The notes beneath the pieces were generated by a model. It had not been told where the DNA came from. It searched no databases and was given only the letters and a program-made list of their open reading frames with translations. A stretch of DNA of 64,000 nt, taken from contig OZ231126.1 of NCBI GenBank assembly GCA_965153355.1, forward strand, positions 30,938,001 through 31,002,000, given 5' to 3'. Position numbers and translations under genes: made by a program. Positions 2,432 through 60,756 of this stretch are shown here, piece by piece. Position 1 is the stretch's first letter. Every line of letters begins with the position of its first letter. The DNA comes from Flaccisagitta enflata. Taxonomy: Eukaryota.

Positions 2432-3123
2432 CAGACAGCATGAGATGCATTCAAAGAAGAACATGTTCTGAAAAAAAGAAACTTTTTTCCAGTTGGCGAT
2501 TAGCCGCCTTTATTGTATACTATTTTATTGCTTTGTGGGGAAGAAAATCATAGATTTTGTAACGCAACGCGTCGCGTCGCGGGGAAGAAAATCAAAGGCA
2601 GGGGGGGAATAAAATCAAAAGCCGCTCAATTATATACACCCCTGGAATGAAATACTATGTACAGAAAATTTAAATATATGAGATTTTGGGGTTGACATGA
2701 GATTTTTCGAGAGGGTTGTTTCAGGAAGAGGAGAGTTACAGTTTCTTGCTATTTTTGGTATATGAGGAATAGATTGATATGGTCTCCTTCGCACCACCAT
2801 ATCTATCAAGTGTTTTCTTGTATTCTCATGTATAGACAGAAATTGATGACCCTTTTCTAATAGTCCGAGGAAAGTCCAGACGGGGGTACAGAAGGGTGAG
2901 AATGATTTATGGAAGGAGAAGCTGAGTCACTATGTAATGCAAGGTGATTATCTGGCGTTGATCATGGAAGAGGGGTCATGTATTTGTTGGAGGAGTTATA
3001 TGTGGGATGTTCCTCAGGGTATTCTCAAGTTTGCCACAAACGCCGGCATAAACACATTGCCATCTTTTGACAACCTAAAAAGATGGGGCAAGCGAGTCAG
3101 TGATCGTTGTCCATTTTGTAGTA

Positions 3124-3189
3124 TTCACAAGGCCCTCTTCCATTTATTTCAGTTTGGGTATAGTGAGGGATATTGTTCCACTTTTCATA
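3124..3189 (+). mobile_element. 5'-truncated copy of the twister-ribozyme repeat at 58279-58707
   Basis: Near-identical to 58642-58707 and ends at the same CTTTTCATA. It interrupts the CCHC finger of the host retroelement. Confidence 0.85.
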
Positions 3190-3320
3190 CAAACTCTTGC
3201 CCATATTCTATCTAATTGTAGCACGTCACTTGATCAAGGCCGATACACATGGCGTAACAATTCCGTCTTATCGTCTTTCATTGATGTTATCCGCCCTCGT
3301 CTCTTAGACGACTTTGTACT

Positions 3321-3880
3321 TTTTGGGCAGCGGCCCCAAAGGGCCGATGTCCTGTAGGACACAGGGGGTAATTTCCATACGTCCGTCCGTCCGTCCTTCC
3401 GCCCCCCCCCTGGTTGGCCATTGAGGCCTAAAATCCTCACTCTCAGGCCTGATTTAGGCCCTCTAGGCCCTCAAATCAGCCCTGCAGGCCTCAAATCAGC
3501 CCTACAGACCTCAAATCAGCTCTCCAGGCCTCAAATCAGCTCTAAAATCAGTTATCCAGGCCACAAATCTGCTCTCCAGCCCAAAAATCAGCACTCCAGG
3601 TCTCAAATCAGCCCTCCAGGCCTCCATTCTGCCCCTAATGCCTTAAGCCTACCCCTGGATCTCATATCTAATCTTCAGGCCTAAAATCTTCCCCCTAAAC
3701 CTCAAATCCCTCTTAGGCCTGATATATTCCCCCTCAGGACGTCTGGAAATTACCCCCTGTGTCCTACAGGACATCGGCCCTTTGGGGCCGCTGCCCTGCT
3801 CTAAGTCCACTACTTCACTTGATCACTCCAAGCAGGGCATCGGGTACCGCTGACCATGTGCGATCCTTGGATGACTAGTT
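3321..3880 (+). mobile_element. HINE, GGGCAGCGGCCCC family, with a central ~21-bp tandem array
   Basis: The 5' IR GGGCAGCGGCCCCAAAGGGCCGATGTCCTGTAGGACACAGGGG recurs inverted subterminally at about 3753-3797. It is followed by a 3' tail ending GATGACTAGTT. Inserted in a T-run. Confidence 0.75.
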
Positions 3881-4117
3881 TCTGATATGCCTGGTCATAC
3901 AGCGCCACATGGTGGGACAATTCCTCCCCACATTCTGGTCACATCTGTCAAGCCTGATGTTTTCATTGTCAATGAGTCCTCGCGTACGGCAATCATTTTC
4001 GAATTAACATGTCCTTGGGACAAAACCATTGAACGTAGTCATGCTTACAAAGAAGAGAAATACGCATCTCTCTCGGCTGATTTATCAAACACGTTTAAAG
4101 TTTTTACCTTTTCTATC

Positions 4118-4549
4118 AAGATCCGTCGGTTACGCTCAAATGAAAAATCGCTAAAAATGTTTGAAGTAGATTGAAAACTCATTTTGTTCATCATTGATGA
4201 TACTCGTCATTTCATTCACTAAACTATAAAGCTACGGTTAGGTCTGATAAAGCTGGGGATAGGTCAGATAGGTCTGGTGATAGGTCGGATAGGTCTGGAG
4301 ATAGGTCTGATAGTGCTGGGGATAGGTCTGATAGAGATGGTGAAATGTCTGATAGAGCTCGGGATAGGTCTTATAGAGTTCGGGATAGGTCTGATAGAGC
4401 TCGGGATAGGCCTGATAGAGCTCAGGACAGGTCTGATAGAGCTAGGGATAGGTCGGACAGAGCTAGGGATAGGTCTGATGGAGCTAGAGATAGGTCTAAG
4501 AATTAATAACGCCTGGCGCACCATCTTGGCCCGTGTATCCGGCCTTGTT
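4118..4549 (+). mobile_element. HINE with a 21-bp GATAGAGCTAGGGATAGGTCT array (5' truncated)
   Basis: 3' end GTGTATCCGGCCTTGTT. An inverted homolog lies at about 27027-27430. Confidence 0.7.
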
Positions 4550-4604
4550 TTCTTTCTTACTCTCTTTTTATTTTCTTCTAATCTGCTGGGTATGACACAT
4601 TATA

Positions 4605-5741
4605 CTGAATAAGATTGCTCACTTATTGACGAGTGATCACCTACAATATGGATATAAGGCGAGACACTCAACAGCACATGCATTGTATGTTTTAAGATCT
4701 TGCATCGACTATTTCACGGAACATGGATCTAATGTTTTTGTTGCATTCTTAGATTGTTCTAAAGGGTTTGACAAAGTAGATCACAGTGGTATTTTTATGA
4801 AACTTTTACAAAGAGGAGTACCTCTCTGCTTGCTTAATGTGATAATCTATTGGTATCGAAATTTATCGAGTGTGGTGAAATGGAATAATGTCTTAAGCAG
4901 AAGCTTTGCCGTTACCTCTGGTGTGCGTCAAGGTGGTGTTTTAAGTCCACGATTGTTTCTTCTTTATGTAGATGATTTAATTGGTGCTTTAAGAAAATCA
5001 GGTGTTGGTTGTCACATAGTTGATATGTTTATAGCAGCTATTATGTATGCAGATGACTTAGCATTACTGGCCCCCACACGATCATCCCTTCAGAAACTTT
5101 TGAATATTTGTTATGCATACGGACTTCAATGGTGTATTTCATACAATCCTGCTAAAACAAATGTTATGGTTTTTGGTAAAAGCGTTGAACATTCTCCATT
5201 GCTTCTTAACGAAACGCCGATAGTAAAAGTTGATGAGTGCAAATATCTTGGCGTAAATGTTGTGGCCGGAAAAGACTTTTCATGCTCTAGCAGAAAACCT
5301 CTCTCAAACTTTCATTGTAGCGCGAACACGATTCTTAATGTATTACACGGTCCTAGTGAACTTGTACAAATGCAGCTTCTGTACACAAATTGCGTCCCTT
5401 TGATGACTTATTGTTGTGAAATTAAGAGATTTTCTGGTCGTGAGATGACACGGATGGATGTAGCCTTAAATGATTGTATTCGAAAGATTTTCTCGTTTAA
5501 CAGATGGGAAAGCACACGTTACTTACGACAATCACTTGGTTATAAGTCGATCACTGAAATTTTTTCTGAACGCCAAAAATCTTTTCTTCGCAGTTTAGCT
5601 AAAACACGCAACCCTGTCCTTATCAACCTAGCTGCACTGTAACCTATTTTTTTTTTCCCTCTCTCTCTCTCTTTCTCTCTACGTGTGAAATGTTGTCTGC
5701 GCTGTTACATTAATTTGTTAACGAATAAATGACATATATTA
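4605..5741 (+). mobile_element. 5'-truncated LINE (CR1/L2-group-like) reverse transcriptase, ORF 4626-5642
   Basis: RT motifs QYGYK..HST, FLDCSKGFDKVDH, GVRQGGVLSP, YADD and KYLG. A short 3' UTR contains AATAAA near 5724. Confidence 0.92.
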
Positions 5742-57494: not shown

Positions 57495-58102
57495 TTTTTG
57501 GGCAGCGGCCCCAAAGGGGCCGATGACCTATGCTTTCACACATAGGGGAAATTTTTCCTACTCCTCCTCCTTCTCCGTCCACCCCCTCAAGCCTCAAATC
57601 CAGCCTTGAAGCCCAAAATCTAGCCCTCAAAGCTCAAAATCCAGCTTCCAAGCTTAAATTCCAGCATCAAAGGCAAAAATTTAGCCTTGAGGCTCAAATA
57701 CCAGCCTTGATTCTCAAATCTTAGGCCTGAGACTCAAATTCCAGCCTTGAGGCTCAAATCCCAGCCTTGAGGCTCTAATCCCAGCCTTGAGGCTCAAATC
57801 CCAGCCTTGATGCTCAATCCCACTCTCAAGACTCAAATCCCAGCCTTGAGGCTCAAATCTCAGATTCCAACCTTGAGGCTCAAATCCTAGCTTTGAGGTT
57901 CAAATCTCAACCTTGCGGCTCAAATCCCACCTTTAAGGCTCAAATCCTTGCATCAAGGCTCAAATTCGAGCCTCAAGCTTCAAAACTTGCTGAGCATAGG
58001 TCATCGGCCCCTTTGGGGCTGCTGCCCCTCTTATCATCACACTCCCATACACAAACACAGGGGCAACGGGTACCGCTGACCATCTAACTATTTTGCGACT
58101 AT
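57495..58102 (+). mobile_element. GGGCAGCGG-family HINE with a 20-bp array
   Basis: Family termini and GAGGCTCAAATCCCAGCCTT units. Confidence 0.75.
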
Positions 58103-58283
58103 TAGATGTGCCATTGCATTGCTTTTAAAAGTGTCTTGTGGCGAACACTCTCACAGTCACAGATAGCGCAACAAAGCCGAATGGGACATTTGAACCCCGC
58201 CATAACGAACCCAGAAAATCAGAAAAACCAGACACGAGATGTTTTTTTTTTCCAAGTAGCATTAACAAATAACAGTTATTTTT

Positions 58284-58347
58284 ATGGGAAACTAGGAGTG
58301 GTGCGCGTATTAAGTAGTCAGTGAGGGTTCACAAGACCCTCTTCCAT
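58284..58347 (+). ncRNA. twister ribozyme, type P5, copy 1 (one P2 mismatch)
   Basis: Same as copy 2 except TAAGTAG instead of TAACTAG and a G in P5. Confidence 0.65.
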
Positions 58348-58597
58348 TTGATTCAGTTTGGGTATAGTGAGGGATATTGTTCCACTTTTCATACTACTCA
58401 GTACCTTGGATTAGAATGTCCGGCGGTCGCATTAAGCTTGACCGATTCTATCTCATGGTAAAAGGTTTCTTAACAATGTTACCCTTGGGTGATTGTTGAA
58501 CTTCTGTTGTATAGGCAACAATTATGTTTAGTCTACTTTTGGTAAGCAGTTTGCTTTTGGGTTAGACTGAGAAGGAATGTTTTTCAGATTCTTTTTT

Positions 58598-58661
58598 ATG
58601 GAAAACTAGGAGTGGTGCGCGTATTAACTAGTCAGTGAGGGTTCACAAGACCCTCTTCCAT
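58598..58661 (+). ncRNA. twister ribozyme, type P5, copy 2
   Basis: P5 ATGGAA/TTCCAT; P2 CTAG/CTAG; L1 GAGTG; P1 GTGCGCGTAT; TAA cleavage motif; T2 TC/GA; P4 GAGGG/CCCTC; L4 TTCACAAGA, whose CAC pairs with GTG (T1). Confidence 0.75.
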
Positions 58662-59255
58662 TTGATTCAGTTTGGGTATAGTGAGGGATATTGTTCCACT
58701 TTTCATAAAACAATTTGTTAATCCTTAGACATCCTGTTTTGCTAGGGGAAACTGTATGTATAGACTACCTGTTTTAGTTACACTGAAATTTCGATATTTT
58801 CAGTACCGGACTCACCACTCTATATGTTGCTTTGTCGGTTCATCCATCTCTCCGTTGGTCAGTCAGTCTGTTGGTAACATTTTTCAATGGCATGAAAGTC
58901 CCACATAACTGTCCCAATCCAACCGTCCGCAACTGGGGGACCGTGTTTACCATGTATGTTTGGTTTTTCTCTTGCTGTTTTCTGTTTCTGACGCAGGTCG
59001 TTTGCTCCTCCGTACAGTTTTCCTGTTAACATCAAAAAGATCAAAATCGGCATGAAATGATTGCCATTCCCACCAAAAAGAACTAATGGCTGAGACTTGA
59101 TGATTACTAGCAATGTAAAAATAGAAACCCATCTATGTTCGTTAAAAAAACATTATAACAACATTAAAATCATATCAAAATTCATGTACATGCATTTTAA
59201 TGAGAATTTTAATGTAACTAGACGCAGGTCCCCGTTGAATAGAGAAACATCTTAC

Positions 59256-59350: not shown

Positions 59351-59729
59351 CTGTAGAGAAGCAAGAGTCGCGGAGTCACAATATTGTTGGACTTGGGGAA
59401 GGGTGGACAGGGGGTTCAACCTCCATCCACACCACTCCCACACACTAACGAGGCTAGATACTTGGCTACCCAAGTCGCGTGCGGTTGGGCAGGGACCATA
59501 TTTGAGATCACTCGATCATTTGAGGAGGAGCAGCGAGGTAAAAGAAAAATATCATAAAAAAGAGCAAAATGTGACCATCAGAAGGACGGAAGGAAGGACG
59601 TACAAAGCGGGGTGTAGCACGTGACTAAAAAGTATCTAAAACGCTCATACTTCCACTTTTTGACTGGAACTGGAAAATGGAAACATCGCGAATTCGTAGT
59701 TTCGAGAATAGGCCCTATCTTTGCGCCTC

Positions 59730-60245
59730 ACGTCAGACGAGGTTGATGAATGAATAAATGAATGAATAAATGAATGAATGAATGATTTGGAAAGCCAAGG
59801 AGCACCCATGAAGATTCATATCTCACGACAGACGAGGTTGATGAATGAATGAATGAGTGAATGAATGAATGAATGATATGGAAAGCCAAAGAGCACCCAT
59901 GAAGATTCATATCTCACGACAGACGAGGTTGATGAATGAATGAATGAATGAATGAATGATGAATAAATGAATGAATGATATGGAAAGCAAAGGAGCACCC
60001 ATGAAGATTCAAATCTCACGACAGAGGAGGTTGATGAAAGAATGAATGAATGTTTGAATGAATGAATGATGCATAAATGAATGAATGATATGGAAAGCCA
60101 AGGAGCACCCATGAAGATTCAAATCTCACGACAGAGGAGGTTGATGAAAGAATGAATGAATGTTTGAATGAATGAATGAATGTTTGAATGAATGAATGAA
60201 TGAATGAATGAATGAATGAATGAATGAATGAATGAATGAGTGATT
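59730..60245. repeat. minisatellite: ~57-bp core alternating with variable (TGAA)n
   Basis: TGGAAAGCCAAGGAGCACCCATGAAGATTCA...GAGGTTGA occurs four times. Confidence 0.92.
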
Positions 60246-60375
60246 GAATCATTTTCTTCGTTGCTTTAGGATTAAGAATTGTAAACAAAAAATAGAGAAA
60301 CGATGTAAAAGAAAAGAAAAATGCCATATACACAAGTCGCGTTCGGGTGGGCAGGGGCGGTGATAATAAAGAATC

Positions 60376-60440
60376 ATGATGATGGTGATAAAATGATGAT
60401 GATGACGATGATGATGACGATGATGATGACGATGATGATA

Positions 60441-60514
<74 letters not shown>

Positions 60515-60756
60515 AATGATGATGGTTTTTCCTCTGTCCAGGGATCTAATCGCAAATTGCGAATGTTTTGCATTGGAGAAGCGAAATAACGGAGACACTT
60601 ACTTTTTGGAATGGTCCGACACTGCCCACGTTGCAATAGGCCCCTGCTAACATTGCAAAAGCGTAGTCGAACAACTCAGTAACAACACCTTTAGACCTTC
60701 AACATGACCACAACCAGAGAAACTGTAACAACACTAATAACAACAACAACAACACT

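Follow-up and report, generated by a model that had tools for sequence, protein, structure and literature searches.

A twister-like core in the 3' module of an abundant non-coding repeat family of Flaccisagitta enflata

How does a short repeat multiply when it carries no long reading frame and contains, close to its 3' end, the pattern of a self-cleaving RNA? The question is raised by an element at positions 58279-58707 of a 64-kb stretch of Flaccisagitta enflata DNA (contig OZ231126.1, 64,000 nt, hereafter the window), which a first-pass annotation had described as retrozyme-like, i.e., as a structured 314-nt monomer delimited by two type-P5 twister ribozymes and released by their cleavage. 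On balance, the evidence points to an insertion of an abundant, non-coding, non-autonomous retroposon whose twister-like core is probably non-catalytic, a retrozyme-like cycle driven by an active twister being a more tentative answer.

A dispersed family with a fixed 3' end

Stretch 58100-58900 was compared with four public sequencing runs: DNA contigs of the source organism (X1), a marine metagenome (X3), a metatranscriptome (X14) and polyA RNA of the source organism (X23). Contigs matching the element number 11,232 in the source-organism DNA, 3,571 in the marine metagenome and 59 in the metatranscriptome, the family being thus found outside the source-organism run as well. The summed word depth in the source-organism DNA is 107-111 in both flanks as opposed to up to 2.85 million within 58316-58720, and 10^5 to 10^6 in the full unit against ~110 in the flanks; such depth is not a copy number, the contrast between element and flanks being one of three to four orders of magnitude. 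The locus belongs to a very high-copy dispersed family, which appears to exceed ten thousand copies in this planktonic marine eukaryote.

The borders of the family can be read from the same contigs. A number of them depart from the element exactly after 58394 or 58707 (65 and 36 in the source-organism DNA, 37 and 29 in the marine metagenome), and the sequence beyond this 3' end is AT-rich with a consensus agreement of only 0.38-0.41, indicating that the flanks past the 3' end are unrelated among copies. Family contigs also run unbroken from 58533 to 58649, that is from the spacer into the second arm of the repeat (for example a metatranscriptome contig over 58536-58649 with 2 differences), which identifies spacer plus arm as the unit of the family, and one source-organism contig joins 58663 to 58404, hinting at another junction of the A-to-B kind in an A-B-A layout. 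The sole source-organism contig over the right flank (58707-58900, 8 differences in 194 nt) has 85 nt past 58707 that are unlike the window, and may represent an allele or paralogue without the insertion.

At the locus itself, two arms (58279-58393 and 58593-58707) form a 115-nt direct repeat at 314-nt spacing that is itself far beyond chance. The first-pass annotation had correctly recognized this repeat, as well as the lack of a long open reading frame (ORF) in the spacer, the longest stop-to-stop frame inside the element being 47 amino acids. The arms are 98% identical, with two mismatches (58287 G against 58601 A, and 58314 G against 58628 C), and the element as a whole corresponds to 1.37 head-to-tail units (429 nt) of a 314-nt unit with a GC content of 39%. 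Since both arms carry the same two rare variants—A at 58336/58650, where G makes up 91-99% of family depth, and A at 58351/58665, where 98% of the family has T—they are sisters and not independent insertions.

A third copy in the window (Table 1) sits inside the decayed ORF of a non-LTR retrotransposon (LTR, long terminal repeat). Intact relatives of the host ORF (zf-RVT, PF13966) read ...CPFCGNIQTLAHILSNC... uninterrupted over the insertion site, and the reading frames on either side of the copy differ by 1, as an insert of 64 or 67 nt requires; a TTCA/CA microhomology at the 5' junction blurs that junction. All 3 of the 3 window copies end in ...TTTTCATA, with their 5' ends at different points. 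Further copies of the core are absent from the window at up to 3 mismatches. Searches for the family in other collections gave 2 loci among metagenome contigs that match the 20-nt anchor only and are chance matches, and 0 copies among viral contigs and genome contigs (two anchors each), and sequence strings of the element have no match in the papers searched.

A constant 3' end, variable 5' truncation and insertion into unrelated sequence are general features of non-LTR (target-primed) retroposons, and all three are displayed by this family. The window copies, with one 3' end and differing 5' ends, bear the mark of reverse transcription that starts at a fixed 3' site and frequently aborts, and no ribozyme is needed to account for such ends. 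Given the shared 3' end, the dispersed family and the 64-67-nt fragment in a retrotransposon ORF, we read the locus as a full 314-nt unit preceded, head-to-tail, by a 5'-truncated copy.

Table 1. Coordinates of the element, of its twister-like cores and of the third copy in the window
Feature	Position	Strand	Description
Upstream partial copy, first repeat arm	58279-58393	+	3'-terminal 115-nt module, 5'-truncated; 98% identity to 58593-58707
Full 314-nt unit	58394-58707	+	Body 58394-58592 and 3' module 58593-58707, ending ...CACTTTTCATA
Twister-like core, copy 1	58284-58347	+	As copy 2, with P2 mismatch G58314 and G58287 in P5; predicted bond U58311/A58312
Twister-like core, copy 2	58598-58661	+	In order: P5, AAAA, P2, L1, weak P1 loop 58615-58624, predicted bond U58625/A58626, L2, P4/L4 58637-58655
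Copy 2, P5	58598-58601 / 58658-58661		ATGG / CCAT, extendable to 6 bp; then AAAA 58602-58605
Copy 2, P2	58606-58609 / 58628-58631		CTAG / CTAG, 4/4 bp (3/4 bp in copy 1)
Copy 2, L1	58610-58614		GAGTG (canonical GAGGG)
Copy 2, UAA	58625-58627		Predicted cleavage between U58625 and A58626, then A58627 (58311-58313 in copy 1)
Copy 2, L2	58632-58633		TC (canonical GC), then 3-nt linker
Copy 2, P4	58637-58641 / 58651-58655		GAGGG / CCCTC; 5-7 bp in both copies
Copy 2, L4	58642-58650		TTCACAAGA, 9 nt, one base extra
G+C-rich hairpin GAGGG-N9-CCCTC	58637-58655	+	Twister P4/L4, or alternatively protein-recognition stem-loop of the 3' module
Third window copy	3124-3190	+	Final 64-67 nt of the 3' module; 67 nt, 95.5% identity to 58328-58394

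The twister-like core

The twister fold requires stems P1, P2 (4 bp) and P4 (PMC5408937), and at least ten nucleotides of its L1 and L4 loops are more than 97% conserved (PMC5408937, PMC8501958, PMC5113685). The segments of copy 2 follow one another precisely as in a twister that lacks P3 and is opened in P5, and the core shares with twisters the 4-bp P2, P4 with its L4, the UAA at the predicted cleavage site, the AAA and GA..G loop nucleotides, pairable pseudoknots and an association with retroelements. The two pseudoknots, T1 (GTG/CAC) and T2 (TC/GA), are complementary in both window copies, and the hairpin that corresponds to P4/L4 is present in every fold computed.

The core departs from twisters in the GC that they conserve in L2, together with its partner, and in the middle G-C pair of T1, all of which are replaced though compensated, in an L4 that is one base longer, in the near absence of P1 and in the lack of a covariance-model match. 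Against the seven twisters in Table 1 of PMC8501958, these departures amount to 4 substitutions and 1 insertion; following the closing G, (G)UCCCAAGC of those twisters becomes (G)UUCACAAGA in L4. Which of the changes fall on the ten conserved positions we infer from this comparison. In the place of P1 stands a 10-nt stretch that offers merely G.U, U-A and G.U around a 4-nt loop. The segments of a P5-type twister, the 9-nt L4 and the two complementary pseudoknots of the first-pass annotation are thus all found in copy 2, whereas its statement that each copy maps onto the fold holds for copy 2, with all helices, and not quite for copy 1, where G58314 leaves a mismatch in P2.

The rarity of such a pattern was estimated with a descriptor of our own, in which the canonical unpaired nucleotides and all helices are fixed, T1 and T2 may consist of any pairs, P1 is free and one extra base is allowed in L4. 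On both strands of the window it matches copy 2 only, copy 1 failing, and in 48 Mb of random sequence with the dinucleotide content of the window it finds 2,957 5' halves and 0 full sites. Two-stage estimates from 35.6 million trials of the number expected by chance per window are, without P5, 1.3e-4 for Watson-Crick T1/T2 and 8.5e-4 when G.U is included, and, with a 4-bp P5 required, 2.2e-5 and 1.3e-4, respectively, all of them optimistic because the descriptor was written after the candidate had been seen.

Folding gives a more even picture. The minimum free energy (MFE) of the copy 2 core is -18.5 kcal/mol (z -2.05, equalled by 6 of 200 shuffles) and that of the copy 1 core -15.0 kcal/mol (z -0.32), and with the twister pairs enforced the two 64-nt cores reach -17.6 and -14.9 kcal/mol, i.e., within 0.9 and 0.1 kcal/mol of the respective MFE. 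The description of the 314-nt monomer (58312-58625) as structured is not borne out: shuffled sequences fold as well in 27 of 100 cases for the linear form (MFE -79.9 kcal/mol, z -0.46) and in 42 of 200 for the circular form (MFE -75.9 kcal/mol, z -0.79, 60% of the bases paired).

The Rfam twister model, which had been proposed as a check, finds nothing. At the gathering threshold the whole window yields 0 twister or hammerhead matches, and at E<=10 no twister is among the 5 matches on 701 nt, the 4 on 141 nt or the 1 on 72 nt around the core; hammerheads and other ribozymes are likewise absent from the window at the gathering threshold and from these three pieces at E<=10. The 72-nt search listed matches down to ~7-12 bits, and the only match of the hairpin at 58637-58655 is one of 11.8 bits, a chance hairpin match. 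This outcome lowers the probability of a twister without removing it, because covariance models omit pseudoknots and would penalise the very changes seen here.

Only 4 of the 64 core positions vary at 10% or more in the DNA runs (58615, 58624, 58642 and 58650). Their places are the loop of P1, the additional base of L4 and a base of T2 at which A and G both pair with U58632; a twister would be expected to tolerate change at each of the four, a point slightly in its favour. The family consensus at 58650 is G (94-99%), so that T2 consists of U.G and C-G in most copies. Covariation among copies, also put forward at the outset, is not found and cannot be demonstrated because no paired position varies, those of P2, T1 and P4 all staying below 10% in the DNA runs of the family. 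The closing positions of P1 do vary, without covarying (in the metatranscriptome, A at 58615 in 91% and G at 58624 in 76%). A covarying extra hairpin pair, 58642-58650, was considered and rejected, expressed relatives carrying mostly C58642 (105 of 120 reads) together with A58650 (112 of 115).

Expression was assessed in one polyA run of the source organism, of which ~6% was sampled. All 165 of the 165 reads that match the element do so partially and at 90-99% identity, indicating that they derive from diverged relatives; reads of the family proper are absent from this sample, the spacer is covered by 0 of 165 reads and read ends do not pile up at the predicted cleavage site, with polyA selection liable to miss a small circular RNA in any case. 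What the expressed relatives share with the element is just the core, 58601-58660 (and 58315-58346 in the first arm), at 90-95% identity, the flanks having drifted on both sides, and within it the hairpin at 58637-58655 is the best-conserved part. The core is thus what related families conserve, in keeping with any function that it may have, catalytic or not. Parts of the twister pattern are disrupted in these relatives: 43 of 110 reads carry C>A at 58628, which breaks P2, and a loose-end consensus of 33 reads has C in place of the first L1 guanine. The homology of one expressed relative begins only at 58314/58315, within 2-3 nt of the bond predicted to be cut. Strings resembling a hammerhead, noted in one expressed relative's core, were also considered and dropped, as they lack a helix II.

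Competing accounts of the element

In the retroposon account, which we consider somewhat more probable than its negation, copies would be made by reverse transcription that always starts at one 3' site (...CACTTTTCATA) and often stops early, leaving 5'-truncated copies. Here, one full unit would have been copied and another 115 nt added, either by moving to a second template or by copying the same RNA anew, with 1.37 head-to-tail units and hence a 115-nt direct repeat at 314-nt spacing as the outcome; a jump between templates, multimeric RNA and circular RNA would each let synthesis pass the 5' end of the first template, and leave indistinguishable traces here. The 60-nt core with its G+C hairpin would be the part recognised by the reverse transcriptase or by another protein. 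Retroposons of the SINE/LINE type (short and long interspersed nuclear elements) have in common a stem-loop at the 3' end to which the reverse transcriptase of the partner responds, and the family resembles them in its fixed 3' end, 5'-truncated copies, 5'-junction microhomology, high copy number and 3'-module hairpin. It differs from them in that no tRNA-, 5S- or 7SL-like head is detected, in its internal T-runs and in that no partner with the same tail occurs in the window. The repeat, the abundance of the family, its fixed 3' end, its truncated copies and its insertion into another element are observed, whereas we infer that reverse transcription was target-primed, that templates were switched and what the hairpin does.

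Several points weigh against this account. The twister-like pattern is objectively rare, at about 1e-4 per window by chance, and is no loose resemblance. Moreover, the four departures from twisters form two compensated pairs, the middle pair of T1 becoming A-U and one pair of T2 becoming U-A, and the conservation seen in diverged expressed relatives speaks for a function in which the entire core takes part. At the locus, no target-site duplication is found, the sole flank-to-flank match being a 5-mer, and in the window no partner reverse transcriptase carries the same 3' module.

The principal alternative, which we hold possible though doubtful, is that the core is a working non-canonical type-P5 twister with no P3, a minimal P1, a middle A-U pair in T1 and U-A/C-G in T2. 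Cleavage at 58311/58312 and 58625/58626 would free a 314-nt RNA with a 5'-OH and a 2',3'-cyclic phosphate, to be circularised by tRNA ligase, and the circle or a multimer would be reverse-transcribed from the fixed site into 1.x-mers, as in animal non-LTR retrozymes. The latter are tandem units of 150-450 bp with GC <50%, type I hammerheads and no LTR, primer-binding site (PBS) or polypurine tract (PPT), whose monomer RNA is expressed both as a linear and as a circular molecule, stably folded and highly self-paired (PMC7229834); they derive from the pseudo-LTR (pLTR) of Penelope-like elements, and a rolling-circle mobilisation is mentioned for them (bioRxiv 10.64898/2026.07.22.740005, 2026 preprint). 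Our element is like them in being short (314 nt) and non-coding, in GC <50%, in lacking LTR, PBS and PPT, in its thousands of copies, in its head-to-tail arrangement and in bearing a structured motif in the repeated terminal part, so that unit length, GC, copy number and partial tandem all fit this group. Unlike them, it has no hammerhead at either Rfam threshold, only 1.37 units at this locus and a predicted circle that is not strongly self-paired. Twisters have already been associated with retroelements, T-variant twisters being located where the Perere-3 (RTE) retrotransposons of Schistosoma mansoni have their 5' end (PMC8501958), a link also mentioned as work 'in preparation' (PMC7761336); the motif described here differs from these in its place near the 3' end of the unit. 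Among the papers retrieved on twister ribozymes and retrozymes, titles and abstract openings mention no retrozyme built on a twister.

An active but unrecognised twister subclass—with a loop for P1, both pseudoknots re-paired as A-U/U-A, and invisible to covariance models—might, as far as the sequence goes, drive such a cycle, a tentative reading that draws its weight from a structural match well beyond what chance would give (a unique descriptor match in the window, at 2.2e-5 to 8.5e-4 per window) and from deviations that are compensated. The unpaired segments conserved in PMC8501958 (Table 1) are mostly kept, namely UAA, GA in GAGGG and, in L4, U..AAG, while the xUAAA segment reads AAAA and keeps 3 of 4 nucleotides by our count. 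In a deep mutational scan of a rice twister, reported to tolerate C-to-U wobbles and to work without P1, any Watson-Crick pair may stand in for C14-G30 of T2, and most pairs of T1 are likewise replaceable (PMC5113685), the text of that study giving no result for the exact pairs changed here. The small energetic cost of enforcing the twister helices in both copies, the position of the variable bases and the expressed relative whose homology starts next to the predicted cut point in the same direction. Against a working ribozyme stand the missing Rfam match even for 72 nt at E<=10, changes at 4 or more nucleotides of segments whose reported conservation exceeds 97%, the extra L4 base, a P1 of at best G.U/U-A/G.U whose closing pair does not covary, and the family consensus G58650, which leaves T2 with U.G plus C-G. 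To these are added the P2 mismatch of copy 1, the broken P2 and lost L1 guanine of expressed relatives, the invariance of paired positions and consequent lack of covariation, a circle that pairs weakly with itself where known retrozyme circles pair strongly, and polyA reads that neither end at the site nor represent the family proper.

Two further accounts explain part of the same evidence. A unit of this size and abundance, truncated at the 5' side and constant at the 3' end, would suit a classical SINE transcribed by RNA polymerase III (pol III), with a tRNA-derived head (from 58394 onward, or with the core as A and B boxes) and a LINE-derived tail; strings that we take to be weak A-box-like and B-box-like motifs lie near 58396-58406 and 58441-58450, ~44 nt apart, and the hairpin resembles an enlarged T-arm, both being our reading of the sequence against consensus boxes. 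This account is improbable: ARAGORN finds 0 tRNA-like genes in the window, Rfam no tRNA, 5S or 7SL match at E<=10 in the 701-, 141- and 72-nt pieces, and runs of T4 to T6 at 58537, 58555, 58580 and 58592 would stop pol III within the unit. A tRNA-like head was rejected on the ARAGORN and Rfam results. The A-B-A layout with arms 98% identical also recalls a miniature LTR-type element with 115-nt LTRs, such as a terminal-repeat retrotransposon in miniature (TRIM) or a plant-type retrozyme, or else a plain local DNA duplication that has nothing to do with mobility, both of which we regard as very improbable. The arm ends show no target-site duplication and no PBS-like string follows the first arm, a 64-67-nt fragment with the same 3' end is inserted alone elsewhere, and family contigs stop at the arm 3' end beside unrelated sequence. 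The LTR/TRIM candidate was rejected for the missing target-site duplication and PBS and for the lone tail fragment, and a simple tandem duplication of 314 nt because it would give 628 nt of periodic sequence and not 429.

Surrounding repeats and biological meaning

The element lies among other repeats. A foldback-like repeat at 57500-58027 consists of two 35-nt inverted arms (GGGCAGCGGCCCCAAAGGGGCCGATG...), 97% complementary, around ~19 copies of a 20-nt tandem unit, and the same terminal motif with similar 20-nt repeats recurs at ~3326-3600 (region 3326-3700), in the decayed retrotransposon. The remains of one or more non-LTR retrotransposons cover 2850-5642 and include a C-terminal zf-RVT-type region (2850-4174), which is interrupted by the 64-67-nt copy of our family and by the foldback-type repeat, and a reverse-transcriptase frame (RVT_1, 4596-5642, E 4.9e-29) with 527 relatives at E<=1e-10, the best 120 of these 527 being all metagenome proteins. 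Simple repeats are found downstream, i.e., (ATGA)n-rich units of 91/110 nt in tandem at 59727-60249, then (ATG) repeated ~50 times at 60376-60524 and (AAC) repeated at least 91 times from 60727, as well as at 1326-1920, where long dinucleotide microsatellites translate as (RE)n and (HT)n.

The meaning of the locus depends on whether the core cleaves. If it does, the retrozyme strategy would extend to a second class of ribozymes, this being the first retrozyme to rely on a twister where others have a hammerhead. Natural twisters would then tolerate re-paired pseudoknots, and covariance-model and descriptor searches that fix the pseudoknot nucleotides would be missing a subclass; the family would also supply marine plankton with small circular RNA in great abundance. 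Should the core be non-catalytic, as we consider somewhat more probable, the family would be an ordinary, very successful short retroposon, and a warning that a full twister-like pattern can arise in the tail of a retroposon.

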